Positions 50,137 through 63,427 are shown, counted from the stretch's first letter. The stretch: 63,427 nucleotides of DNA from a virus (IMGVR_UViG_3300011008_000006); one strand, 5' to 3'. Notes: generated by a model not told the origin, from the letters alone. Translations and numbers: made by a program.

Positions 50137-50360
50137 AATTCTTCCAGCTTTTATTTATGCGCAGTCAAATACTTGACTTCCAGCTTAACTTATGTTAAAT
50201 ATTTATATTTATATTTCCCCTTTTATTATATCATAAATTTCCCAGCTTGTCAAATATTTTTTTGCCCAGCTTACCCAGCTTCTCCCAAATTTGGAAAATT
50301 TTTTCAGTTGGCCGGCCGGTTCTTCCAGCTTCCAGCTTCCAGCTTATCCCAGCTGGCCGG
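50121..50360. repeat. cluster of CCAGCT(T) direct repeats; first pair forms the helicase terminator
   Basis: about nine (T/C)CCAGCT copies, including tandem TTCCAGCTTCCAGCTTCCAGCTT at 50323-50345. Confidence 0.65.
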
Positions 50361-50582
50361 CATGTTAATATTATATAATAAAATTTGGAAGAATTGTCAA
50401 AATTTGACAAGCCGGCCTGTCAACTCCAAAAGAAGTGACTGGAAAAATTTGGAAATAAATTGTAACAAAATTGTAACAAAAAAGTAAGAAATTTGTAACA
50501 ATTTCCTACTTGACAATTTGACAAATATATGATAATATGTTAGTGGTGGGAGAGACATAAAATCGGGCCGGCCAGAAATGCC

Positions 50583-50837
50583 TTACGGCATTTTGGTACA
50601 AAGGATAACATTGCTGTAATGAGTTAAGTACGTGATACCGTTCATAGTAAACTGAACGCAATCGGATTCACTAAAATCGCGCCAACTGGAAACGGGTCCT
50701 TCAATAAGTTCGCCATTACCTAATTGGAGAATGACCCATTTGAAATTCCATTTAGTATCAAACCCAATTTCACGATTGCAACCGCAGAGACAGATGAAAA
50801 CCAGAACCAACATAATAATCAATACAATTTTCTTCAT
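50583..50837 (-). CDS. putative lipoprotein
   Basis: MKK-hydrophobic stretch-LCGC lipobox. Confidence 0.8.
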   Translation of the reverse strand: MKKIVLIIMLVLVFICLCGCNREIGFDTKWNFKWVILQLGNGELIEGPVSSWRDFSESDCVQFTMNGITYLTHYSNVILCTKMP

Positions 50838-50857
50838 TTTTTTCTTCCTTTCTAACT

Positions 50858-51088
50858 TTACTCACCTGCAATGGTTTCGGTTAAGTCCATCCAATCATGA
50901 TAGTATCTAAGGATTTTTACTTCATTGGGTTCAAATTCACTACCACAACAACCACAAATAATTCGGAGAGGGATAGTTTTTTCATCAATATGGTCGTCGA
51001 TAGTTTCTGCAATACCACCAAAGATATTGTCAGAATCATCTACCATAAGATCAGGAGAAATTACCTGAAATTTTACTTGTTGCCACAT
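50858..51088 (-). CDS. hypothetical protein
   Basis: start MWQQVKF after GAGGAGG; IICGCCG motif. Confidence 0.7.
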   Translation of the reverse strand: MWQQVKFQVISPDLMVDDSDNIFGGIAETIDDHIDEKTIPLRIICGCCGSEFEPNEVKILRYYHDWMDLTETIAGE

Positions 51089-51317
51089 TCTTCTTCCTCC
51101 TCTTCTTCCGCCAGAATAATGGGGTTTCGACGCAGTTCCAACACAAATTTGATGGCTTCCCACCAGGAACATTTGAGGGTTTTACGGGCAATCTTGATTT
51201 CTTCGAGCATTCTCATCTCTCCTTTCAACATACTTATTATAACATAAAATTGTTACAAAACAATAACGAAAGTATTACAATTCTGTTACAAATTTGCTGG
51301 CCGGCCAGAAGATGTGG

Positions 51318-51566
51318 TTATTCCACATCTTCCACTTCGTGATAGTTATCGTGGAAAAACATATTTTCCGCTTCATAGACAGCGTCATTAAAATCATCCC
51401 AGAAATTGGGTTGTTTTATTGCCCACGCCAATAACGTAGTGAAACTGATAGATGTTTTTAATCCTTCAATTAGATCAATTTGATCCATTTTTTCATAAAC
51501 ATCATCACGCGCTTCTTCTTCGGTTTCAAATTCTTCACCAAAATCATTTTCCCAATGCGTACTCAT
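51318..51566 (-). CDS. highly acidic small protein
   Basis: 82 aa, D/E-rich; AGGAGG RBS. Confidence 0.8.
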   Translation of the reverse strand: MSTHWENDFGEEFETEEEARDDVYEKMDQIDLIEGLKTSISFTTLLAWAIKQPNFWDDFNDAVYEAENMFFHDNYHEVEDVE

Positions 51567-51578
51567 TATTATTCCTCC

Positions 51579-51794
51579 TTATTTCACGAAATATCGCTCA
51601 ATGATAAATTCACCCATATTGGTATAGATGTGAATGCTCTCGGTGTCTTCATAGCGATCTTCTTCAATTTCGCCTTCTTCATAGAAGTTGAGAACGTCAT
51701 TTAACGCACTTTCACGAGTGTAATATACACCACCAATACCATTGTCACCACAAGTTGACCACCACTGCATTATCCATACGTTCATCATCATCAT
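51579..51794 (-). CDS. small acidic protein (VW...GVYxTxExA family)
   Basis: AAGGAG RBS; own promoter at ~51847-51820. Confidence 0.8.
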   Translation of the reverse strand: MMMMNVWIMQWWSTCGDNGIGGVYYTRESALNDVLNFYEEGEIEEDRYEDTESIHIYTNMGEFIIERYFVK

Positions 51795-51928
51795 CTCTCC
51801 TTTCGTTTCTTACATTATTATTATAACACAAAAATCTAAAAAGTCAATACTTAAAATGTTACAATTTTATTAATAATTACGGGCCGGCCCGTTAGTTATA
51901 ACTAACTCGGTAGTAAAAGAAAAGGGGA

Positions 51929-52303
51929 TTACTCCCCTTTCTCTTCCGCTTTCTTGGCGCGCCGAACCTTGTCCGCTTCCGCTTTCTTGGCGCGGGCTTC
52001 TGCCTTTTCCTGAGCCTTCGCCTGCTTTTTGGCGTACTCGTCAATTTCTTTCTGCATCAGTTCGCGAGCGGTCATATCTTCGCGCTCTTCCGCGACAATA
52101 GCGCCCAAGCGCACATAACGCTCAACGCCATTCTTGTCAATGAGAATAGCGCCCCACTGACGGTCATTAACCTTACGGTATTCAGTGTCATTGTCAGTCG
52201 TAAAGGCATCAATAGTTCCCGCTTCGGTCTCAAGCTCGAAAATTTCGGAGAAGATACGGCTACGCAGGTCAGCATCCACAACAGTGCGAGAATACTTAGG
52301 CAT
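51929..52303 (-). CDS. hypothetical protein with Lys/Ala-rich C-terminal helix
   Basis: 124 aa, GC-rich codons, conserved leader hairpin, own promoter. Confidence 0.85.
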   Translation of the reverse strand: MPKYSRTVVDADLRSRIFSEIFELETEAGTIDAFTTDNDTEYRKVNDRQWGAILIDKNGVERYVRLGAIVAEEREDMTARELMQKEIDEYAKKQAKAQEKAEARAKKAEADKVRRAKKAEEKGE

Positions 52304-52402
52304 ATGAGTTTCCTTTCTGGTTTGAAGAGTTTCCTTCTCTTTTTTACATATTCATTATACCATAGAATTTGTACTTTGTCAAGCACTTTTTTGAAATTTT
52401 TC

Positions 52403-52523
52403 TTCCAAGGGACTTGCAAGTGAGGTTTGTTTTTCCCTGCTATATGCGTCAACTGTCGGTGAATTTCGCACCCGTTGTTCTATCCTCACATAGCCAGGTG
52501 TTCTTTTCCTCTCCCTTGGAACA
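52403..52523 (-). ncRNA. putative small structured RNA
   Basis: promoter TTGACA(52557)-17-TATTAT; 5' TTCCAAGGGA pairs with 3' TCCCTTGGAA; inner GTGAGG/CCTCAC stem; no convincing ORF with RBS. Confidence 0.6.
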
Positions 52524-52623
52524 TATATATAATATCATAAATTTTATGAAATGTCAAGTAAATTTTAAAAAAAATAATTATAAACTTTTCTGTATAAATA
52601 TGCGCGGGCCGGCCCGAAGAAGA

Positions 52624-52896
52624 TTACTCTTCTTCGGTGCTAACAGAGATAAGGAAAGAATTATTACAATGAATAGTGAGCAAAATGTCATCTTCGGAAT
52701 CACTATAATCACTATGAAAATTGATAGTATATCCATCTGCGATTAGCGCTTTGATGGCATTTTGAAGGTCATGAAGATTCATTAAACGCCGTTGTTCCCG
52801 CCGCTGTGTTAAAATCTCCTTGATTTTATTTGTTGCGTCAAAAAGCATTTCATCACTGGCGGAGTTAAGCATTTCATACAGATCTGTGTAAGTCAT
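52624..52896 (-). CDS. hypothetical protein
   Basis: 90 aa, AAGGAG RBS, own promoter. Confidence 0.8.
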   Translation of the reverse strand: MTYTDLYEMLNSASDEMLFDATNKIKEILTQRREQRRLMNLHDLQNAIKALIADGYTINFHSDYSDSEDDILLTIHCNNSFLISVSTEEE

Positions 52897-53062
52897 TGTG
52901 ATCTCTCCTTTCTTTTTACATTATAATTATATCATAGATTTGGGAAAAGTCAATACTTAAATTATTACAATTTTATGAACAAATTACGGGCCGGCCCGCT
53001 TCATCGCATTAAAGCATTAAAGTAAGCGGATAAAAGAAAAGAGGGCTTGCGCCCTCTTCCCC

Positions 53063-53395
53063 TTACCGCAGGGAGTAGGAATTGACCTTCCCTTCGGTCT
53101 TGACGACCTCGTTAGCCCACTGGTGGGTCAAACCGTACTGCACCCGAGCCTTGGTAAAACCTTCGGGCAAATTGCTCTCGCAATCCTCGAAGATTTCCGC
53201 TACGGTCACAGGCTTGCCCGCGACACGAAGGGTTTCAAACACGATAGCCTTGGCTTCATCGTACTCGGCGTTCTTCTGCGCCTTGGCTTCCGCACCACGG
53301 TTGATTTCCTTGCGGAGTTCGTCAAGGATGGTTTCATCGGAGAAGTTAGCGGACACAAGGGCGTTCAGGATGACTTCGTAAGAGGTTTTCTTCAT
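53063..53395 (-). CDS. winged-helix-like small protein, paralog 1
   Basis: start MKKTSYEVIL; PVTVAEIF...LPEGFTKARVQYGL...WxxEVVKTEGKVNSY; terminator at 53037-53058. Confidence 0.85.
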   Translation of the reverse strand: MKKTSYEVILNALVSANFSDETILDELRKEINRGAEAKAQKNAEYDEAKAIVFETLRVAGKPVTVAEIFEDCESNLPEGFTKARVQYGLTHQWANEVVKTEGKVNSYSLR

Positions 53396-53500
53396 AGTGG
53401 TAATTCCTTTCTGGTTTTTAAGAGTTTTCCTTCTCTTGATTACGTATTTATTGTACCACAGATTTGGGAGTTTGTCAAGTAGTTTTTTGAAAATTTTTTT

Positions 53501-53591
53501 GTTCCGTGCACAAGTTGTCATCTTGCGCGAAGCTCACACGCCAACCGCATTGACGAATTGCTGGTCTGTGCATCCCTTGCCTCTTGGAACA
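53501..53591 (-). ncRNA. putative small structured RNA
   Basis: TTGACA-17-TATAAT promoter; 5' GTTCC/3' GGAAC and TGCACA/TGTGCA pairings. Confidence 0.55.
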
Positions 53592-53650
53592 TTTTTATTA
53601 TACCATAGATTTGGGAGTTTGTCAAGAGGTTTTTTTAAGAAATTTTTTTT

Positions 53651-53755
53651 AGATGAGAGAATTGCGGTCTTGTATATGTGTCCTCTCTGCTACTCACATA
53701 CCACGCTTAACTAATAGGGTGGAATCCTCTCCTTTCCTTCATTTCCCTTGGAACA
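53651..53755 (-). ncRNA. putative small structured RNA
   Basis: starts TGTTCCAAGGG behind a promoter; GAGAGGATT/AATTCTCTC stem; 3' AGACCGCAAT motif shared with the 59188 and 61411 units. Confidence 0.5.
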
Positions 53756-53915
53756 ATTATATAATATCATAAATTTCACTATTTGTCTATTGGTAAATTG
53801 CACAAACTTTATTTAACTTTTTTGTGCAATTTGCGGGCCGGCCCGAAGTTAGTTATATCTAACTAATAATAAAAAAAGGCCCTCCCATTTGGGAGGGTAG
53901 AAAGGAAGGAGGAAG

Positions 53916-53991
53916 TGGTCACGAAGGGAGGACTTGAACCTACCAACCGTTTGAGTAGTGTCAAACCATCTACCGTTGATTGTACTTCGTG
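53916..53991 (-). tRNA. atypical tRNA-like element with CUA in a 6-nt anticodon loop
   Basis: CACGAAG/CTTCGTG acceptor stem + A-CCA; D arm with GG; T arm GTAGG-TTCAAGT-CCTCC; GTTTGA-CACTAC-TCAAAC anticodon arm. Confidence 0.65.
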
Positions 53992-54004
53992 ATGAAGGGG
54001 GGGC

Positions 54005-54340
54005 TTACGCCCTCACCTTGTAGGTGTTGACCTTGCCCTCGGTCTTTTCGACCTCGGCAGTCCAATAGTGGGTCAGACCATACTGCACCTGGGCCTTTGT
54101 GAAGCCACGGGGCAGTTCGTCCTTGCACTCTTCGTAGAGTTCAGCCACGGTCACGGGAGTGTTGGCAATAGCCAGAGCGTTCAGCACCGCGGTTTTAGCG
54201 GCGTCATACATGGCAACCTTCGCGGCCTTTTCGGCTTCACCGCGATGGATTTCCTTTTCCAGTTCAGCCATAGCGGTTTCGTCAGAGAAGTTAGCGGCGA
54301 TCAGAGCGTTGTAGATAGCGGTCAGAGAAGCCTTCGTCAT
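54005..54340 (-). CDS. winged-helix-like small protein, paralog 2
   Basis: start MTKASLTAIYNAL; highly similar to 53063-53395. Confidence 0.85.
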   Translation of the reverse strand: MTKASLTAIYNALIAANFSDETAMAELEKEIHRGEAEKAAKVAMYDAAKTAVLNALAIANTPVTVAELYEECKDELPRGFTKAQVQYGLTHYWTAEVEKTEGKVNTYKVRA

Positions 54341-54440
54341 AGTAGTACCCTTTCTGGTTTTTTGGACTGTCCTTGTCCTTTTCGTGTATTCATTATAGCA
54401 CATTGTGCTTATAATGTCAAGTGGTTTTTCAATCTTTTTT

Positions 54441-54560
54441 TCGTAGCAGGAGAAAGATTGAAAGAAAACCTGTCCAGTTCCTGCCTTGGAATAACGGGCA
54501 TTTCCTGGCAACCTTCTACATCTCACCTCCAAGGGTTCATTCCTGTTTCCTTGGTACATC
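54441..54560 (-). ncRNA. putative small structured RNA
   Basis: TTGACA-17-TATAAT promoter; starts TGTACCAAGG; CCTTGGA/TCCAAGG and CAGGA/TCCTG pairings. Confidence 0.5.
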
Positions 54561-54621
54561 CTTATTATAGCACAGGATTTGCTTTTTGTCAAGGGGTTTT
54601 TCAAAAGTTTTTGAAAAAATT

Positions 54622-54729
54622 TTGTGTCCTCTCCTTATAAGCCAACCCTCTGGGGTGCTTATCCGCGTGCGTTTCTTTACCGCCCTGCCGAAGATTTCTT
54701 CGGGATGGTCGTCACTTCCCCTTGGAACA
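54622..54729 (-). ncRNA. putative small structured RNA
   Basis: TTGACA promoter; starts TGTTCCAAGGGG; CCGAAGA/TCTTCGG and ATAAGC/GCTTAT hairpins; GAGAGGACACA shared with the 53651 unit. Confidence 0.5.
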
Positions 54730-54830
54730 ATATTATAATACCATAGATTTGGGAAAATGTCAAGCACTTTTTGAAAAAAATAATTATTCTTTTTTCTGAA
54801 TTAAAATTCGCGGGCCGGCCGAGAGTTAGA

Positions 54831-55022
54831 TTACTCTAACTCTTTTACTTCTTCCAAATTATCACAGTATGCGAAATTATATACTTCATCCCAGTAAAAA
54901 TTTCTTTGACATTTGGGACAATACCCTTCCCAAGTTTCATAATAATAATCACCTTCATTTTGAGAACGGCGAAGTTCAGTATATTCTAATTCTTTATTAC
55001 AATAAGGGCATTTAGGCGACAT
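54831..55022 (-). CDS. zinc-ribbon protein
   Basis: CPYC...CPKC. Confidence 0.75.
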   Translation of the reverse strand: MSPKCPYCNKELEYTELRRSQNEGDYYYETWEGYCPKCQRNFYWDEVYNFAYCDNLEEVKELE

Positions 55023-55023
55023 T

Positions 55024-55215
55024 TTATTTCACTCCTTTTAGAAAGTATGGTTTGATAAAAAACCAATTAGAACATTCAGGGCATTCGATCCATGGCAGTA
55101 TCTTGTCATTTTGAATTGCGGGGTCATTTTCATCAAACTCAAAAACACATCCACAGGCACACTGAATTTTATACATATAAATGGGATTTTTAATTCTATG
55201 TTTTAAGATTTTCAT
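55024..55215 (-). CDS. zinc-ribbon protein
   Basis: CACGCVFEF...CPEC. Confidence 0.75.
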   Translation of the reverse strand: MKILKHRIKNPIYMYKIQCACGCVFEFDENDPAIQNDKILPWIECPECSNWFFIKPYFLKGVK

Positions 55216-55624
55216 TCTTCATCTCATCCTTTCAATTTTTATTACATGTTCTTTATATTGTACTTGTCTAAATAATTTAGCCAATAAAAATAAACAATAA
55301 TCTTTAATAGTTGAATAAAAAGTTTGTACGGTATTATCGTCAAATAAAACTCGCATTTTTATTTTCATTCTTCATCCCATCCTTTCTTATACTTCGGTTT
55401 CTTGTTGCGCTTGTCTGGAATTACTTTGGTTACGGGATTGAGAACACCCCAATCTTTTCGGATTGTGCGATATACTTCGTAATTGGTACGTGCTTTCAGT
55501 GCTTTCTTCTTGCTCATTTCTTCTTCCCTTCCTTTCTACATATAGAGTATAACATACTTTGAGTAGAAAGTCAATAGTTTTAATTGTTAAAATTTTATTA
55601 CAAATATTACGGGCCGGCCCGAAG

Positions 55625-56314
55625 TTAGCCTTGGCTAACTTCTTCTTCGGTCGGGAGGGGGTAGCCCCTCCGCAAGCACTCCATGAAGATTTTGGCTTCG
55701 ATTTCTACATCCTCCAAACCCGTATGTGATTCCTGGAAATTATTGTCACCAGTGAGAAAACGCCACAAGATTTCTGCGGTCAGACGCGGGCGAGGAATGG
55801 CGTGATTAGTCATGTAATTATTGGTAACACAAAAGTCAATGTATTCTTTGGTATTACCAATGACCGTTCTTGCCATCTTCATTGTATCCATAATGGGGAT
55901 GCCAAAAGGGAGGAAATAGCGCAACCGCGATTTGAGTTGATAGCGAAGTGTTGCATTTAATACTTTTACATCAAACCAAATATTATGCCCTGCAATCACT
56001 TCAATTTTATAATCCTTGATAATTTGGCGAATAATCAACCACATTTTCAATGTATCTACAATTCGCCGTTGTCCCATCCGCATTTCGGTCAGGTATTGGG
56101 GTATTTTTTCCGCGAAATAGGCTTGCTCCATCGTCAAAGGCATACCAAAAAATACATCCTCATTTACAAGGCTAATTTTGGTAAGCAATTCGCCCGTGTC
56201 TGTTTCCAGTACACTACCACCAAGGTCATAGACCTGTCCGTTTTCGGTTTCAAGCTGTCCCTTTTCGTTGCAGTAAGTTTCACCAGTTTCGCCATCCAAA
56301 ATCAGTATACGCAA
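55625..56314 (-). CDS. DEDDh 3'-5' exonuclease
   Basis: ILDGET (ExoI), GHNIWFD (ExoII), HTGLED (ExoIII); TTG start after the conserved leader. Confidence 0.85.
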   Translation of the reverse strand: MRILILDGETGETYCNEKGQLETENGQVYDLGGSVLETDTGELLTKISLVNEDVFFGMPLTMEQAYFAEKIPQYLTEMRMGQRRIVDTLKMWLIIRQIIKDYKIEVIAGHNIWFDVKVLNATLRYQLKSRLRYFLPFGIPIMDTMKMARTVIGNTKEYIDFCVTNNYMTNHAIPRPRLTAEILWRFLTGDNNFQESHTGLEDVEIEAKIFMECLRRGYPLPTEEEVSQG

Positions 56315-56436
56315 GAGAGTTCCCTTTCTGGTTTGTGTTGTTTTCCTTCAACTTTCTTTTACATTATAGCATACAAAAAGCGAATTGTCAAGCCTGAATT
56401 ATTACAATTTTATTACATTTTCGCGGGCCGGCCCGA

Positions 56437-56711
56437 TTATTGTAATCGGGCATCAAGCGGGACTTTTTCAATATCATATTCACACTCATATAACCCATAT
56501 TTATTACCGCAAGTGGTGGTAATGCAGATAGCGCATCTTCTTCATACGTTCGTTGAATTAAACCATCTTCCAAATCATCTTCATCAAACATTTCTAATAG
56601 ATAGTTATACAGTGCTTCAATGGCTTTTTCCTTAGTAGAATACCAACCTTCAATTCCTTCCACACGTTCTTCATCGACAAGAATTGTTTCAGTAATAATC
56701 CAAATTTCCAT
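56437..56711 (-). pseudogene. VW...GxYSTxExA family small protein, apparently frameshifted near 56530
   Basis: the track ORF runs through the GGCCGGCC junction into the next promoter; an alternative frame (ICITTTCGNKYGLYECEYDIEKVPLDARLQ-TAA) ends at the junction hairpin as other cassettes do. Confidence 0.5.
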
Positions 56712-56845
56712 ATTAGTTCCTTTCTGGTTTTTAAGAGTTTCCCTCTCTTTTACATATATATAATATCATAAAAAATCAGAATGTCAATAGGTTTTTGAAA
56801 AAATTTACGGGCCGGCCCGCGTATAATTATACAAAAAGAAGCGGA

Positions 56846-57265
56846 TTACTCCGCTCCTTTTACCATGTTCTGAAAGCCTTTTTCATTCAGGTCTTTCACA
56901 ACCTGCTTGGCTTCCTGCTTGCGCTTCTTCGCGGCGATAGCATCAGCTTTCTTCTGTTCTGCCTTTGCTTTCTTCGCCCGCTTTTCTGCGAGGTCTTCCT
57001 GATAGGCTTCTGCCGCGGCGTACCCATCATAAGGGATGTAACCACCATCACCATCACGCTCACCGCGAGGAATGGACACCTTCACCACGGGGAATTTTTC
57101 ATTCCCTTCCTTGTCACACAAGGGCAAAGTGATTTCGTTAGCACTCACGAAAGGAACTTGGGTTTTGGGGTCAAGGTCAAAGTGTTCTGCGAGAGCCTTG
57201 CAAATGACTTCGAGAATTTCGGTGCGCATTGCGGTTTCCAATTCGGCTTTAGTCATAATTTCCAC
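56846..57265 (-). CDS. hypothetical protein with Lys/Ala-rich C-terminal helix
   Basis: 139 aa, GC-rich codons, own promoter. Confidence 0.85.
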   Translation of the reverse strand: MEIMTKAELETAMRTEILEVICKALAEHFDLDPKTQVPFVSANEITLPLCDKEGNEKFPVVKVSIPRGERDGDGGYIPYDGYAAAEAYQEDLAEKRAKKAKAEQKKADAIAAKKRKQEAKQVVKDLNEKGFQNMVKGAE

Positions 57266-57394
57266 TTCCTTTCTTTTTACATATAGATTATATCATAAAA
57301 TTTGAAATTTGTCAATAGTTTTTTGAAAAAAATTTTTATACAAAATTTTGTATAAATATGTGCGGGCCGGTCAAGTAAGTTAGCTTGCGCTAAC

Positions 57395-57583
57395 TTACTC
57401 CACAATAGATACTTTCCACGGAGGGACAAAGAAAATTTTTATTTCTTCATTAAAAATACCAAGGTACTTTTTGAAAAGGTATTCAAAGTATACTTTCCAA
57501 GGAATTGCCGCGAGGTAAATTTCATTACCATCATGTACTTCAACCATTGCATTTTTGTAAAGAATCAGTTTTTTCATTTTCAA
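57395..57583 (-). CDS. small hypothetical protein
   Basis: 62 aa; conserved leader hairpin and promoter upstream. Confidence 0.7.
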   Translation of the reverse strand: MKMKKLILYKNAMVEVHDGNEIYLAAIPWKVYFEYLFKKYLGIFNEEIKIFFVPPWKVSIVE

Positions 57584-57724
57584 TTCCTTTCTGGTTTAGG
57601 GAGTTTTCCTTCTCCTTTTCATTTACAAATAGATTATAACATATGAAAATGAAATTGTCAATATAAAAATTATTACAAAATTATTAAATTAACGGGCCGG
57701 CCGAAAACCCATCGGGGTGATGGG

Positions 57725-58171
57725 TTAGTGGAGAAGGTTTTTCAAAATTTCGATGATTTTATCGGGGGAATATGCTTCATCCTGCCACGCTTCACGGTTG
57801 CCTTCTTCATCATCAAATAAGATACCACCACCACACGCTTCATATTTATTCGTGCCGTAGTCAACAATCTTGATTTCATCCCACCGAACGCTTTTCAAAT
57901 GTTCGTGAAGCCAAACCAACTTTGCAAGAGCAATTTCACCGCAATACAGCTCACTTCCGCTTTTGCTCGTCCAACTAATTACGCCAAGCATCCAGCCTTG
58001 GGCTTGCAAACGGTTCAACAAACGAGCAAGCAGGGATAGATTTAGGAGAGGTTCAGCTTCTTCATAGGGGAAAACATCTTCATTCACCAGAAAATCAAGC
58101 CAACCTTCAACACCGTACAAATCCGCAATCGTGCCATCCATGTCAAACCAAATCATTTTCTTCATCTTCAT
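57725..58171 (-). CDS. HAD-superfamily phosphatase (5'-nucleotidase/deoxyribonucleotidase-like)
   Basis: motif I FDMDGT, motif II ISWTS, K, motif IV LFDD; GGAGGT RBS; own promoter. Confidence 0.85.
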   Translation of the reverse strand: MKMKKMIWFDMDGTIADLYGVEGWLDFLVNEDVFPYEEAEPLLNLSLLARLLNRLQAQGWMLGVISWTSKSGSELYCGEIALAKLVWLHEHLKSVRWDEIKIVDYGTNKYEACGGGILFDDEEGNREAWQDEAYSPDKIIEILKNLLH

Positions 58172-58273
58172 TACCTCCCTTTCACACTCATATTATAACG
58201 TATTTACCTCCATTTGTCAACCCTTTTTGAAAAAAATTTTTCAGTTAGAGGTATCTAACGGGCCGGCCAGATT

Positions 58274-58501
58274 TTAACTGTCCATTGTAATGGATTCCAT
58301 ACGCCATATACCTTTGTCTGTGGTAAAAGTGATAAGAGTTGGACAATGTGTTGTATAATTTAATTGAGTTTCATTACAAATGGTTCGATATTGATGATAT
58401 GCTTCCATTGCTTTATATAAAGAAGAATATACGCCCCATACGCCAGTAATAAGATTGCCGAATTCATTATTCTTTTCGAGTGACAAAACCCAAACTTTCA
58501 T
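58274..58501 (-). CDS. small protein (VW...GVYSSxxxA family)
   Basis: start MKVWVLS after AAGGAG. Confidence 0.75.
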   Translation of the reverse strand: MKVWVLSLEKNNEFGNLITGVWGVYSSLYKAMEAYHQYRTICNETQLNYTTHCPTLITFTTDKGIWRMESITMDS

Positions 58502-58756
58502 TTTTATTTCTCCTTTACATCTCAAAGTAGTCTTTAATTTTTTCACCGATTGTCTTTCCCGTACTTACGGAAATAATAATCCATACTGCTATGATTGCTA
58601 CAATTGCTACCATTGTCCTCTCTCCTTTCAATAGTAGTATAACACAGTATATATTATTTGTCAAGGGGTTTTTAAAAATTTTTTACGGGCCGGCCCGAGT
58701 TAGTGATGTCTAACTCATAGGGCAAAGAAAAGCCCACCTTTGCGGTGGGCAATTCC

Positions 58757-59086
58757 TTACGCTTTACGGTACTGGTTGGGCTGACCTTCAACCTTGACCA
58801 CTTCATCCTTCCAGTAGTTCAGCAGACCATACTGAATCTTGGACTTAGAGAAGCCATCGGGCAGAGTATCAGCGCAGGCATCGTAGATTTCCTGCACAGT
58901 CATCAGACACGAGGTCATCACAGCCATAACGGCATCGTGGGCTTCGGCGTAAGCATCGCGGTTAGCCTGCGCTTTGGCTTCACCCTTGGACAGTTCATTT
59001 TCCAGCTCCGCTTTCAGTTCGGACAGGTTGGCAACAGTTTCACCGTTCAGGTAGGCAATCAGGGACTTCATGGTGGCTTTCTTCAT
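58757..59086 (-). CDS. winged-helix-like small protein, paralog 3
   Basis: MTVQEIY...LPDGFSKSKIQYGL...WKDEVVKVEGQPNQY; terminator GCCCACC/GGTGGGC. Confidence 0.85.
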   Translation of the reverse strand: MKKATMKSLIAYLNGETVANLSELKAELENELSKGEAKAQANRDAYAEAHDAVMAVMTSCLMTVQEIYDACADTLPDGFSKSKIQYGLLNYWKDEVVKVEGQPNQYRKA

Positions 59087-59187
59087 AGTGGTATCCTTTC
59101 TGGTTTTTAGGACTTTTCCTTGTCCTTTGTGTATTCATTATAGCACAATTTGTGCTTAATGTCAAGAGATAATTTTGTTAAGTTTTT

Positions 59188-59298
59188 GTTACAAGGGAGA
59201 GGATTGCGGTCTGTATAGGTTAAGATTGAATCTTCCCGCAGAGTTTTTCCGACTTACCTCCTTATGCCGTGTCACACGGCGTCCTCTCCCTTGGAACA
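59188..59298 (-). ncRNA. putative small structured RNA
   Basis: promoter upstream; 16-bp terminal stem GTTCCAAGGGAGAGGA/TCCTCTCCCTTGTAAC (1 mismatch); GCCGTG/CACGGC hairpin. Confidence 0.65.
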
Positions 59299-59392
59299 AT
59301 TATATAATACCATAAATTTTATAGTTTGTCAACTACTTTTTGAAAAAAATAATTATAAATTTTTTTTGCATAAATTTGCGGGCCGGCCAGAA

Positions 59393-59650
59393 AAAAGCCT
59401 TGAGGGACGCTTTCTTCAGAAGTGCGTTTCAGAGGGCTTTTATTGGGAGAGGTCTTCACGAGATGAATCCCTGCCTATTTCAGTCTCCCGCAGGTGCTGC
59501 CTTGACATTTGAGCTTTCGCCCCAGCGCTCGCCACACTGTATACCGCACCATCTCGCTCTTTCGGCGTGCGGTAGGTTTCATTGGGATGGGTCTTACAGA
59601 CTCGCGTGGGTCACACCGTTTCTTGGCTTTGCCCTCCCTCGACCGTGATA
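59393..59650 (-). ncRNA. putative ~255-nt structured RNA
   Basis: TTGACT-17-TATACT promoter; GAGGGA/TCCCTC and GAGGGC/GCCCTC long-range pairs; TACCGCAC/GTGCGGTA stem; GAAA loops; ends in a T-run at a GGCCGGCC junction. Confidence 0.6.
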
Positions 59651-59917
59651 TAAGTATATCACAAGACAAGTAAAAAGTCAATACATTTTTTTTGATTTAA
59701 TAATTTTGTAACAATTTCGGCGGGCCGGCCCGAAATGGTCACCGCAAGATGACCATTTTGACGATCCAGTGATATCGAGAGAGATTAGTACGCAGTTCCG
59801 CGGCTTCCGCGGCTTCTTCGTAAGTATTATAATATTTCATGCCTTCCATGCCCGTTTCTTTACATACGATTTTGTACATAGTCATTTTTCTCCCTCCTTT
59901 TACATTCTTATTATATC

Positions 59918-60100
59918 TTAATTTTCATTTTTTGTCAAGTCTTTTTGAATGGCACGATTAAAAATTTTTCTTTCTTGTCTATGCAAGATTTTTTTAAGTC
60001 TACGCCGCGCGGGTGTGGATTGATCCACAATACCACGGTAGCCCTTGTCCATATCCCATGCAGCCATATTAGAATATTTTTTGTAGCTTGCTCGTGTCAT
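59918..60100 (-). CDS. small basic protein
   Basis: 60 aa, AGGAGG RBS, own promoter. Confidence 0.7.
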   Translation of the reverse strand: MTRASYKKYSNMAAWDMDKGYRGIVDQSTPARRRLKKILHRQERKIFNRAIQKDLTKNEN

Positions 60101-60147
60101 TGTTAACCCTCCTTACATTCTTATTATATCATAGTTGGCGTAGCTTG

Positions 60148-60600
60148 TCAAGCTACTGCCAACATTTTCCGCAGGATTTTTTCGTTGGTCAGTTCGGCAT
60201 TGTCGAGCTTCACCTGCACCTGTTCACCGTTCAGCTCTACATCGCCCGCCACGTTGAAGGGCACGCTGTCTTTTGTCCAGGTCATACCAGCCACCCGTTC
60301 AGTGATGACTTTCTCAAAGTTTTCGCCCTTGTTGTATTTGGTGTCAGCTTCCAGCAGGTCAGCAGAGCCAAGCAGGGTAGCCACGGCGGTCAGCTCGCGC
60401 CGTTCGTCAGCGGTCAGGCGGATACGGATTTTAGCAAAACCGCCACGCTTGGAGCTCGCACGGTCAAGCTTGAAGTACACAGCCAACTGGGCGAAAGTCA
60501 GCTTGACAAAGTACAGCTTGCCATCACACACAAAACCCAAAATATAGGTATGGGCCGCGCTCCAACGCTCGTACATGGTCATCATTTCCTGCTTGCTCAT
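60148..60600 (-). CDS. hypothetical protein with a PD-(D/E)XK-like motif
   Basis: start MSKQEMM; NKGENFE...GDVELNGEQVQVK; GC-rich codons; own promoter. Confidence 0.75.
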   Translation of the reverse strand: MSKQEMMTMYERWSAAHTYILGFVCDGKLYFVKLTFAQLAVYFKLDRASSKRGGFAKIRIRLTADERRELTAVATLLGSADLLEADTKYNKGENFEKVITERVAGMTWTKDSVPFNVAGDVELNGEQVQVKLDNAELTNEKILRKMLAVA

Positions 60601-60674
60601 CCGGGACACCTTCCTTTCCTTTCCCTTTGGGACACCTCTATTATACCACATCCGGCGCGAAAGTCAAGCTTTTT

Positions 60675-60870
60675 TTGTTACAATTCTGTTACAATTTTAT
60701 TAACAAATTATGAACTATTCCAGCCCAGCCGTAACACTTTTGTAATATTTTTGTAATAATTTGTAACATTTTTATAATACTTTTGTAACAAATTCGTAAC
60801 ATTTTTGTAATAAATTCGTAACAAAAAGTTCATAAAAATGTAATAAATTTGTAACACTTTTGTAACATTT
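60675..60870. repeat. ~11-bp-period GTAACA/GTAATA tandem array
   Basis: about 12 TTGTAA(C/T)A units at 60730-60870 and inverted TGTTACAA units at 60675-60700. Confidence 0.85.
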
Positions 60871-61410
60871 ACCCCTTGACAAGTTGCCTTCGGTGTGGTA
60901 AAATGTTAGTGGTGGAAGAGGGCCACGCTATACTGGCCGGCCAGTATATTTGATTAAAGGTATTTTCACACTTTAATGCGTTAAAGTGCTCAGGCCGGTC
61001 CTTTTATATTGGATCAAAGTTAGTTATAACTAACTAGACTGGCCGATATATTTGATCAAAGGTATATTTGCGTACTTTAATACTTTAATACGTTAAAGTA
61101 TTCGCCCGGCCCGCCTGGAGGATGTATATTCTGGTACCATTTTCTTGACTTTTCGACTCTAAGCGATTTTCTCGCAATCCATCAACCGGCCGGTTAATAG
61201 TTATAACAAAAATGGCTTAGAATTGAAAAGTCAAAGAAAGTCAAACTCCGGCCGGCCAGAAAATAGTTAGATATATCTAACTAGTGTCTAGTCTCCTCCT
61301 GATCCTACCCAACCTCTCTCCGGTCTCCCCGGTGTCCTCGACTGTGATTATATTATAGCATGGCCGGCCGGATTTGTCAAGGGGTTTTTGAAATTTTTTT
61401 TAAAAAAAAT

Positions 61411-61535
61411 AAGGATCGCGGTCTTACCTGTCCGATCCTTCTGCCTAAGAGGAACCCTGATCTCACCGACTCTGGCAGGGCTGCTTCTTGTTTTTCTTCG
61501 GCCTCTTAGTGGTCTACTTGGTTTCCCTTTCGACA
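61411..61535 (-). ncRNA. putative small structured RNA
   Basis: TTGACT promoter at ~61569; CTAAGAGG/CCTCTTAG stem; terminal AAGGATCG/CGATCCTT hairpin + T-run containing AGACCGC. Confidence 0.55.
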
Positions 61536-61539
61536 TTAT

Positions 61540-61647
61540 TATTCTATCATAGTATAGGGTAAAAGTCAAGGGTTTTTTGAAAATTTTTTTGAAAAAGTTT
61601 TTTTCAAAAAAGTGTTGACAAGTGTGCCGGTGTATGGTATACTATAA
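61540..61647. promoter_or_regulatory. divergent SigA-type promoter pair where the cassette array changes strand
   Basis: minus-strand TTGACT...TAGAAT and plus-strand TTGACA(61615)-17-TATACT, separated by A/T tracts. Confidence 0.8.
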
Positions 61648-61692
61648 CCGTAAAAGGGAAAGGAAAATCCCAAACACCAGAAAGGGAACACC

Positions 61693-61842
61693 ATGGAGAT
61701 CAAGAAGCTGTATGTCGTCATTCTGAACAACGGCGAAAAGCACTATTTTGCTACTGAATGCGATCGTAACTATTATCTCAACCGCCTTCCTGATTATCTT
61801 CATATCACCGCAAAAACTTCTGAAATTGTTCTTGATGCTTGA
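61693..61842 (+). CDS. small hypothetical protein (49 aa)
   Basis: MEIKKLYVVILNNGEKHYFATECDR...; conserved leader + RBS; hairpin after the stop. Confidence 0.7.
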   Translation: MEIKKLYVVILNNGEKHYFATECDRNYYLNRLPDYLHITAKTSEIVLDA

Positions 61843-61960
61843 AAAAGCATCAAGAGCAACCAAAAAATTTTTGAAAAATCTATTGACAAGCAAATTCGGC
61901 TATGATATAATAAGACTATCGAAGGGAAGGAAAACCCCACAAACCAGAAAGGATAAAACG

Positions 61961-62122
61961 ATGAAAGAATATTTATTTGCTATTATTATTTTGTGCTGGC
62001 TATTTTGTGGTTTTATGGGAATTATGTATTGTAAAGATGACAAAACTAACTGGTGGATGATTGTTTTTTCTGGTATGGTCGTGCCTATTGCTTTTATTGC
62101 TGAATTTTGTGGGTTGTTATAA
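61961..62122 (+). CDS. small membrane protein (53 aa)
   Basis: MKEYLFAIIILCWLFCG...; two hydrophobic segments; promoter and conserved leader. Confidence 0.7.
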   Translation: MKEYLFAIIILCWLFCGFMGIMYCKDDKTNWWMIVFSGMVVPIAFIAEFCGLL

Positions 62123-62193
62123 AAATCAAAAAAGTGTTGACAAATGTTTTCCGATGTGTTATAATATGGCTGTAAAAAGGAAAGGGGATCACA

Positions 62194-62505
62194 GTGATGA
62201 TTAACACGCGGACGATTAAAAATCTCAAAAATAACGATGGATTGACTTTGAAGAATGGTCGGAAAATCACTTACAAAAGTGGCTGGCAAGTTGCTACGGA
62301 AGGCGTAGAATGCCATACAGTTGAAGAGACTATGCGCGCGATTAAAGCGTATAATGGAAATTGTGGCATCTGGTTTTCTGATGGCGTGTATTATGTAGAT
62401 AAGTCGCACCGCGTCAATACTAAACGCGACGCCTTGCGGATTGGCAAAGAGTGCAACCAAATTTCCGTTTTACGGTGGCGTGATCTGGGTTTAGTATATT
62501 GCTAA
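62194..62505 (+). CDS. hypothetical protein
   Basis: 103 aa; TTGACA-17-TATAAT promoter; terminator-like hairpin at ~62531-62558. Confidence 0.8.
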   Translation: MMINTRTIKNLKNNDGLTLKNGRKITYKSGWQVATEGVECHTVEETMRAIKAYNGNCGIWFSDGVYYVDKSHRVNTKRDALRIGKECNQISVLRWRDLGLVYC

Positions 62506-62713
62506 AATTTTCAAAAAGTATTGAAGGCTGGCGCTCTCCGCGTGAGAGTGTCTTTTTTCTGGCCGGCCAGAAATTGATTGAAAATAACTACTGGCCGGCC
62601 CGCTGCTTTAGTACACTAAAGTAATAAAGTAAAAAATTTTTTTAAAAAAGAGGTTGACAACCGGCGCGATGTATGTTATAATAAGACTGTAAGAAAGAAA
62701 GGGAGGGAAAACA

Positions 62714-62845
62714 ATGTTTGAGATTTATGACATCAATTCCGGTCTGGTGCTCCTCGGTGGTTTCACCACTACCGCTGCGGCGCGGAAAGCCGCGTTCCTG
62801 ATCTTCCCTGACCGCATGTGGTCGGTGCGGATCACCAAGGCGTAA
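62714..62845 (+). CDS. small hypothetical protein (43 aa)
   Basis: MFEIYDINSGLVLLGGFTTTAAARKAA...; GGAGG RBS; consensus promoter. Confidence 0.7.
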   Translation: MFEIYDINSGLVLLGGFTTTAAARKAAFLIFPDRMWSVRITKA

Positions 62846-62933
62846 AGCCTTGAAAAAAATTTTTAAAAAGTGTTGACAACCGGACAAACTTATGCTATAA
62901 TAAGACCATAAAGAAGAAAGGAAGGGCAAGACA

Positions 62934-63119
62934 ATGGAAAAATGGATCGTAGTAGAGTTTAATGACATGGGTGACGCGCGTGTAGTTAGTGCAAGATATG
63001 ACACTTGGGAAGACGCCTGTAAAGTACAGAATGCGATGGAAATGCTTCATTGTGAAAATGCTTATATGATTTATACCGAAGACGAGTGGCAGTGGAATAA
63101 GCAGATGGGGTGGTATTAA
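62934..63119 (+). CDS. small hypothetical protein
   Basis: 61 aa; consensus promoter; RYDTWEDA motif. Confidence 0.75.
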   Translation: MEKWIVVEFNDMGDARVVSARYDTWEDACKVQNAMEMLHCENAYMIYTEDEWQWNKQMGWY

Positions 63120-63224
63120 TACCACCCTATTTTTTTAAAAAAATTTTTTCAAAAAGTGTTGACATTTATGCCGGCATATGCTATAATAAGACCGTGAAAA
63201 GGGAAAGGAAAGGGAGGAAGAAAG

Positions 63225-63320
63225 ATGACTACTTGGTACGATTATGCGGAAAGCTTCGCTGATGACTATGAGGAAATGATCGCTTTGGAAAAGGTGCTGG
63301 CGGAGGAAGAAGGGAAATGA
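63225..63320 (+). CDS. acidic peptide (31 aa)
   Basis: MTTWYDYAESFADDYEEMIALEKVLAEEEGK; GGAGG RBS; consensus promoter; terminator AAGAAGGGA/TCCCTTCTT + T-run. Confidence 0.65.
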   Translation: MTTWYDYAESFADDYEEMIALEKVLAEEEGK

Positions 63321-63427
63321 TCCCTTCTTTTTTTTTATGTACTACTTTAGTGCTTTAGTGTACTAAAGTATTTGCCCGGCCGGCCCGTTTATGATAGATC
63401 CGGCCCGCTATATGCCATTCTAAGCCA

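Follow-up and report, generated by a model that had tools for sequence, protein, structure and literature searches.

In coliphage T7, the stacked strong host-type promoters A1-A3 and a non-coding leader precede the small early gene 0.3, and transcripts cross the downstream promoters. Here we describe a comparable arrangement in IMGVR_UViG_3300011008_000006, a viral DNA fragment of 63,427 nucleotides (nt), referred to below as the window. Its early region contains seven short units without a credible open reading frame (ORF), named by position as units 52403, 53501, 53651, 54441, 54622, 59188 and 61411, which are interleaved with small genes. As in T7, several strong host-type promoters stand in a row before a small early gene; unlike in T7, the gaps between them, here called slots, can each hold a distinct conserved fold of 60-250 nt or a transfer RNA (tRNA), the stack is repeated before paralogous genes, and slots are exchanged between phages. 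The feature is real and widespread, but its initial annotation as a single family of structured RNAs was a misreading. It is very probable that the folds are under selection, and this is much surer than any functional reading. Tentatively, and with less than even confidence, we favor the view that slots between stacked host-type early promoters hold unrelated conserved folds, which would be processed into stable RNAs that bind proteins in trans and most likely serve as decoys.

Other described systems share parts of this layout. The promoter/stem-loop (PeSL) cassettes of T4-type phages (Arbiol et al., 2010; PMC2839356) likewise combine repeated sigma-70-type promoters, AT-rich upstream tracts, small ORFans and recombination at promoter copies; unlike the short terminators located at the promoter in that account, the elements here are long and multi-helix, lie downstream of +1, mostly lack terminators and have family-specific conserved loops. 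RNA anti-CRISPRs (Racrs) resemble the units in that small promoter-driven RNAs, about 100 nt long, lie beside small protein genes in the accessory regions of phages (PMC10651486; rAcrIIA1, 10.64898/2026.06.03.729762). In contrast to Racrs, the units fall into many unrelated families and show no likeness to the CRISPR repeats sampled. Phage tRNAs (RF00005), including the suppressor tRNAs described for the code 15 clade (phAss-1; PMC10607447), are a further parallel, as relatives of the present phage carry tRNAs in the same slots and TAG is read through here; unlike these, none of the seven units has the shape of a tRNA, and the window's own tRNA-like element has a 6-nt loop and receives no ARAGORN or Rfam call. 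The literature search returned no description of these RNAs, though they may be among the unnamed candidates of a 10,006-candidate screen (PMC10690425) whose main alignments it did not cover. New here are the definition of the RNA family that we call family A, the test against cognate RNA-protein pairing, the distinction between local and distant 5' clamps, and the tRNA-like element with a CUA triplet.

A phage early region made of promoter cassettes

The source is an uncultured animal-gut phage. Runs containing its relatives are labeled gut or bovine gut metagenome, and its best match among cultured or deposited phages, a short one, is phAss-1, whose record files it under the code 15 clade and whose host is predicted to belong to Clostridia (PMC10607447). 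The fragment reads TAG through in its late genes (window positions 1-48000; translation table 15): minus-strand frames of at least 150 codons cover 68% of the window with TAG open versus 40% under table 11, the longest such frame with TAG open spans 2816 codons, and TAG is the final stop in none of 19 early coding units.

From 50.3 kb onward, early cassettes with near-perfect sigma-A promoters follow one another (Table 1). The 22 copies of GGCCGGCC all lie within this early region, compared to 0.19 expected; these palindromes stand at cassette borders, often beside a TTAG...CTAA palindrome, and are likely protein-binding or recombination sites. The region holding the units has 83 promoter-like sites versus 33.5 +/- 6.2 in shuffles. 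As in PeSL cassettes, a repeated strong promoter with an AT-rich upstream tract precedes ORFans, and signs of PeSL-type shuffling are found in the loss of slot 53501 in two relatives and in unrelated RNAs standing before near-identical genes. Positions 60660-61280, a divergence point without an ORF, are rich in palindromes and TTGTAA/TTGTTA repeats and may mark an origin or the end of the genome.

The initial annotation of the individual units held in part. All seven lie on the minus strand, each behind a promoter of its own that has a TG extension and closely follows the sigma-A consensus (10-12 of 12 matches). The common start is GT(T/A)CCAAG in six units, 61411 beginning with GTCGAAAG instead, and this start motif occurs at none of the 24 coding promoter units of the window. 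Across homologues of six units, no ORF with a ribosome-binding site is conserved, and ORFs vary in frame, length or presence, which is not the behavior of short-peptide genes; unit 59188 has no homologues to compare. The reported GC-richness is only modest, since the units have 43-54% GC versus 35% for the window while the early region itself has about 41%. The same annotation overlooked two further units (59647-59390 and 61347-61285) and the tRNA-like element at 53991-53916.

Table 1. Units, promoters and neighboring features of the early region, with window coordinates.
Feature	Position	Strand	Promoter	Basis or remark
Early region, single-gene cassettes bounded by GGCCGGCC elements	50310..63385	.		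GGCCGGCC copies and promoters
124-amino-acid gene whose tail is Lys/Ala-rich, immediately following unit 52403	51929..52303	-	52382-52354	own promoter
Unit 52403, family A clamped RNA: 10-bp stem, 9-nt bulge, 4-bp stem, A-rich internal loop, variable hairpin	52403..52522	-		z -3.61, members, covariation
Promoter of unit 52403	52557-52529	-		RNA start inferred from promoter spacing
Winged-helix paralogue 1, 110 amino acids, behind units 53651 and 53501	53063..53395	-		gene call, paralogy
Unit 53501; first five bases pair with 3' end	53501..53590	-	53625-53597	one homologue, z -1.40
Unit 53651; closing stem and hairpin with conserved purine loop	53651..53754	-	53789-53761	two homologues
tRNA-like element, 76 nt: acceptor stem, D and T arms, CCA end	53916..53991	-	none of its own	read from sequence
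Winged-helix paralogue 2, 111 amino acids, behind units 54622 and 54441	54005..54340	-		gene call, paralogy
Unit 54441; two-domain RNA	54441..54557	-	54592-54564	seven homologues aligned
Unit 54622; multi-hairpin RNA	54622..54728	-	54763-54735	four homologues
Winged-helix paralogue 3, 109 amino acids, behind unit 59188	58757..59086	-		AlphaFold2 model, fold matches
Unit 59188; 15-pair closing stem round multi-branch interior	59187..59297	-	59332-59304	z -5.10
Extra unit, about 250 nt; hairpin and U tract	59390..59647	-	59681-59653	11-member family
Extra unit, about 65 nt; adjoins early-region divergence point	61285..61347	-	61380-61352	8-member family
Unit 61411; ends in hairpin and U tract	61400..61534	-	61569-61541	one homologue, terminator-like end

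Unrelated conserved folds in the slots

The annotated scaffold, conserved at its ends with a variable interior, holds for unit 52403 only and not for the other six units. The 10-bp stem reported between the 5' and 3' ends of this unit is present and extends past a 9-nt bulge into four further pairs, and the transcribed strand folds better than its complement (z scores of -3.61 vs -2.06). A search with the 19-base 3' motif found 13 viral and 62 metagenome stretches. Among the 51 distinct matches, the 5' purine motif lies upstream in 44, a contig end truncates one, and six are chance matches; the promoter was flagged in 43 of the 44 members, the remaining one having been mis-anchored in the analysis. 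Searching genome contigs for an exact 17-mer returned 18 stretches with a single true member (L228), located on a phage-like contig inside a genome bin, which brings family A to 45 members. The bin itself (G001) has several contigs of this phage clade, at once a weak hint at a host and a sign of bin contamination.

Within family A, whose members measure 82-150 nt, a purine-rich 5' end and the 19-base 3' end enclose unrelated, paired hairpins. Although outside the search pattern, the 5' purine motif is invariant in the 42 of 44 members taken into the alignment; conversely, 41 of 42 promoter-started units with the family A 5' motif have the exact 3' motif. The outer pair extending the closing stem covaries (GC in 21 members, AU in 15, GU in 4, unpaired in 2). 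In a 17-member subfamily, 97.8% of cells are paired and 10 of 21 pairs show double changes, a degree of pairing reached by 0 of 500 shuffles and by slid controls to at most 47.7%. The interior is thus a paired hairpin with compensatory changes, which does not support a guide. Although the interior cannot be aligned, an unpaired AAAA and the 9-nt bulge remain fixed; as read from the alignment, these fixed unpaired bases exceed the need of a plain stabilizer, and we infer that they would form a binding site, of which such bases are the usual sign. Members stand before other slots, Lys/Ala-rich genes or a tRNA-like RNA, so that the family is not tied to one gene; about 27 of 43 stand before a winged-helix gene, as judged from N-termini. 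Neither Pfam nor PHROG gave a match for the 124-amino-acid gene following unit 52403.

Homologues in related phages were found for six of the seven units, with compensatory changes in five, and because the alignments are small each count is support rather than proof. Double or compensatory changes are found in 5 of 14 pairs of 54441 (seven homologues), 7 of 25 pairs of 54622 (four homologues, 92-95% identity across phages), 3 of 21 pairs of 53651 (homologues L164 and L241) and 7 of 33 pairs of 61411, where none is broken in its one homologue at 80%. The one homologue of 53501, at 96% identity, shows none in 30 pairs and four single changes that keep the pair; the slot itself is cleanly absent in relatives X4 and X8 (joint 53488-53645). 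For 59188, the long closing stem is present (z -5.10) with 15 pairs and one mismatch rather than the 16 bp annotated, and blastn, pattern and motif searches of viral contigs and related loci found no homologue. Among the overlooked units, 59390-59647 has double changes in two of six core-helix pairs, z -0.27 when folded alone and a terminator-like end, and 61285-61347 has a weak consensus fold with compensatory changes in one of nine pairs. The former also has conserved single-stranded tracts and no Rfam match. Ending in a hairpin and a U tract, 61411 is the best candidate of the seven for a discrete transcript.

The folds do not form one family. Unit interiors fail to align with each other, no blastn cross-hits occur between units, and the family A model lists only 59188 among the other units, at E 0.022. 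Two sequence motifs had been taken as common to several units: the 11-mer GAGAGGACACA is indeed present in two, a borderline result that 14 of 500 shuffles reach, while AGACCGC in three units is not above chance as a 7-mer (98 of 500 shuffles), the remainder of that 3' motif being the closing-stem strand. Searches of viral contigs gave 0 matches to the combined pattern and 15 contigs with the 16-mer, none of them in a promoter cassette. Conservation and compensatory changes support the proposed repertoire of structured non-coding units. Because the units mostly lack terminators and lie in promoter stacks, their transcripts may not be discrete.

Nor does the 5' start motif define an RNA scaffold. 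A scan of viral contigs for promoter plus motif found at least 132 loci, and of 259 distinct units opening with the motif in all phage-like loci gathered, 140 are coding, 90 non-coding (next promoter within 300 nt) and 29 other; with 140 coding units against 90 short non-coding ones, the motif is not specific to RNAs. Local pairing of the first bases, at a distance of up to 25 nt, is seen in 101 of 140 coding but only 10 of 90 non-coding units; 39 of the 90 pair them with the far end instead. In coding units the pairing partner tracks the variant: GAAC goes with GTTCC in 78 of 109, and GTAC, which never goes with GTTCC, accompanies GTACC in 6 of 31. Local pairing in the coding class and distant pairing in the non-coding class show that a 5' clamp is used in both, and it may shield RNAs from exonucleases. 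Pairing of the 5' end with the next -35 box was considered and rejected: it is weak for 54622 (pairing probability 0.3), and 52403 and 59188 close 20-26 nt earlier.

tRNAs occupy some slots. A true tRNA-Lys(TTT) stands in same-type slots of locus L249, and an Rfam scan of 13 related loci returned tRNAs only. There is no canonical tRNA in the window. Its tRNA-like element has CUA at positions 34-36, but in place of a 7-nt anticodon loop with U33 and a purine at 37 it has a loop of 6 nt, and one T-stem pair is mismatched. It is kept in all four relatives compared, with the 6-nt loop unchanged and with a double D-stem change in X8, and may represent an amber suppressor that is decayed or non-standard, or else act as a tRNA decoy. 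Elsewhere, a tRNA-like gene directly follows a clamped RNA in L243 (5084-5176), L022 (574-666) and L148 (7795-7887), all on the minus strand, with an odd anticodon arm and a long variable arm (ARAGORN: tRNA-Ser(TGA)). A T arm and an acceptor end like that of tRNA-Ala or transfer-messenger RNA (tmRNA) occur in slot RNAs of L248 near 10091 (+), L020 near 9043 (+) and L249 near 2811 (-), each before a winged-helix gene.

Winged-helix genes and searches for partners

Five of the seven units precede paralogues with a predicted winged helix, directly or via another unit. A first search for related loci with paralogue 2 found no matches; paralogue 3, to which the others are 37-38% identical, has 82 homologues. 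Its AlphaFold2 model (pLDDT 93.8) predicts, with confidence, a long helix and a winged helix; its best matches (Z 7-9) are winged helices of the cullin, Z-alpha, Fur and IclR types, whose scores tie. The Z-alpha matches, tied with these other winged helices, are ZBP1 (Z 8.3), PKZ (8.3) and African swine fever virus I73R (8.2); at Z 8.3 the root-mean-square deviations are 1.6-1.8 over 59 residues. A second fold search placed a swinepox double-stranded-RNA-binding PKR inhibitor second (E 0.007).

Among independent loci, leaving out those fetched by the family A motif, an ORF-less unit lies directly upstream of 61 of 79 winged-helix genes versus 82 of 716 other genes; within the same leader type the counts are 49 of 62 versus 23 of 119, and because the genomes are related the P values of this link overstate it. 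One to four ORF-less promoters are stacked upstream of 62 of the 79 genes, and 17 have no slot. Cognate pairing between RNA and protein was rejected (Spearman -0.02 over 78 pairs; unrelated RNAs in 17 of 19 close protein pairs). The 251 candidate slots, a sample with false positives, fall into 164 clusters, 133 of them singletons.

Searches for known families and targets were negative within their scope. The units match no known Rfam family, as the initial annotation had left to be checked: Rfam 15 gave 0 matches in the window at the gathering threshold, and at E <= 10 a single match inside the seven RNA bodies (22.6 bits vs a threshold of 47.9). The proposal that the interiors are guides is not supported, as they are base-paired and their longest match in the window is 10-12 nt, no more than in shuffles. 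Mimicry of CRISPR RNA (crRNA) by sequence likewise found no support: against repeats from 26 of 30 cas2 loci, nearly all of one kind, the units are not above shuffles (30-98 of 100 shuffles reach the score). No Cas match was found among the 26-27 window proteins scanned, and a solitary unit behind its own promoter without cas genes is the layout of a Racr. No CRISPR array that could supply a host spacer match was found in the two loci checked of 12. Exact words of at least 12 nt shared with three candidate-host ribosomal RNA (rRNA) operons occur in 10 of 162 slots versus 9.5 in shuffles. Eight bases in the purine loop of 53651 also occur in the sarcin-ricin loop of those operons; this is a weak candidate, since L164 and L241 do not conserve the 5' half of the purine loop. 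No window unit matched RNase P, 6S, tmRNA or signal recognition particle (SRP) RNA of the candidate host group, itself chosen on the weak hint of the bin with several phage contigs.

Some slots of related loci are of interest in their own right. A small family with a hairpin and a conserved 3' tail (L141 near 6470 (-), L128, L075, L167, L233) has the best local score (15) of the 251 candidate slots against the sampled CRISPR repeats, without a shuffle control, and is a weak Racr lead. Another group (L040 near 4900, L181, L192, L197, L250) carries a hairpin with a TGACGA loop followed by a tail whose last bases are AAC or AAAT, and looks repeat-like by eye. A short slot in L248 near 4071 (-), one of 220 queries, resembles part of host RNase P RNA at E 0.001; the likeness may be chance.

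Decoys, leaders and what the slots may mean

If the slot RNAs act as decoys in trans, host RNA polymerase would fire every promoter at infection, each slot forming the 5' part of a transcript that enters the next gene, with a high early dose of both the winged-helix protein and the slot contents. The first bases, GTTCC, would fold back onto a nearby partner in mRNAs and onto the distal end of the slot in RNA units. This would protect both ends against exonucleases, and a cut in the A/U-rich linker would leave a closed, stable RNA. Recombination between promoter copies would swap slots, and any RNA useful at a very high early dose could ride along. The least certain step is that the fixed unpaired bases would be protein-binding sites, the RNAs being decoys or ligands for host RNA-binding or defense proteins with a separate target for each family; decoys for defense proteins, as already proposed in the initial annotation, are plausible. 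Covariation, the fixed unpaired bases of family A and its occurrence before various kinds of neighbor, the 5' clamp, the terminator-like ends of 61411 and 59390-59647, tRNAs in same-type slots and the precise loss of 53501 support this reading. Several observations weigh against it. Apart from 52403 and 59188, the five remaining units alone fold no better than shuffles (z +0.46 to -1.69), relatedness alone can lift sequences above shuffle controls even when they are unstructured, a number of the families comprise no more than 2-5 members, and the 3' motif of most family A members was fixed by the search design. Across 120 genomes from a single candidate host family, with 30 candidates scored in each, the family A model found no convincing chromosomal homologue, and the comparisons with Rfam, CRISPR repeats, rRNA and RNase P/6S/tmRNA/SRP found no binding target. 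Of the 87 slots before winged-helix genes, 48 exceed 100 nt while 27 are near-empty at 70 nt or less, so that a promoter stack can exist without cargo, and only two have a hairpin with a U tract.

These last counts bear equally on nested mRNA leaders, in which the stack would give much early winged-helix protein and the folded slots would act only in cis as 5' stabilizers or spacers. Because the units mostly lack terminators and stand in stacks before winged-helix genes, we rank this alternative, already named in the initial annotation, close behind trans-acting decoys. It would account for the stacked ORF-less promoters of 62 of 79 genes, the rarity of terminators, the near-empty slots, the persistence of the winged-helix link within one leader type, and the finding that any RNA can fill a slot before closely related proteins; phage SP82 mRNA is reported to be stabilized by a purine-rich ribosome-binding site (PMC7509114). 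It accounts poorly for the invariant unpaired bases of family A, the 92-95% identity of 54622, the terminated 61411 and 59390-59647 and the true tRNAs in slots, and the purine tract is paired in clamped units and so would not hold a ribosome. Rather improbable, by comparison, is that the winged-helix paralogues bind slot RNAs by helix shape in a Z-alpha-like manner, without sequence specificity, as interchangeable particles that shield or present RNAs. The strong positional link without co-variation and the Z-alpha-type domains near the top of both fold searches would fit; but the modeled scores tie with cullin, Fur and IclR (Z 7.5-9.2), a Z near 8 can reflect a common arrangement, the Z-alpha Pfam family is not in the best 25 of 72 families, and 17 of 79 genes lack a slot. 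The cassette architecture, precise slot loss, the 133 singletons and a family A bulge that is a DNA palindrome near the next promoter could also be relics of cassette shuffling at the DNA level, PeSL-like and without RNA function, which we doubt strongly: compensatory and G-U changes run along interior helices, 52403 folds asymmetrically between strands, and PeSL stem-loops are terminators at or near the promoter (PMC2839356) and not multi-helix elements of 100-250 nt. The least probable reading is that of guide RNAs or Racr-like crRNA mimics with a common scaffold. Its attractions are the fixed ends and variable interior of family A and the solitary promoter-driven RNAs beside small genes, the Racr layout in PMC10651486 and 10.64898/2026.06.03.729762, the latter citing one crRNA mimic with negligible sequence similarity. 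The interiors are, however, paired hairpins with compensatory changes, without excess match in the window and without likeness to repeats, a comparison in which other CRISPR types were barely sampled.

A bolder form of the decoy reading, which we regard as unlikely, is a clade-wide plug-in library: dozens of unrelated decoy RNAs made from first-moment promoter stacks and chaperoned by co-encoded Z-alpha-like winged-helix proteins, each RNA family (family A, tRNA- or tmRNA-end mimics, repeat-like hairpins) titrating a different host defense or RNA-binding protein. If true, it would be the RNA counterpart of anti-defense islands. Should the slots prove to be leaders only, they would provide natural 5'-stabilizing designs for Clostridia; should they yield stable RNAs, they would represent a large, easily enumerated phage RNA pool in which pull-downs would point to host partners. 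Family A offers a 45-member test case, in which the fixed unpaired bases mark the residues to mutate. In large gut phages, early regions are treated as catalogs of small proteins of unknown function; in this one, a sizeable fraction of promoter units consists of ORF-less folds that are very probably under selection.

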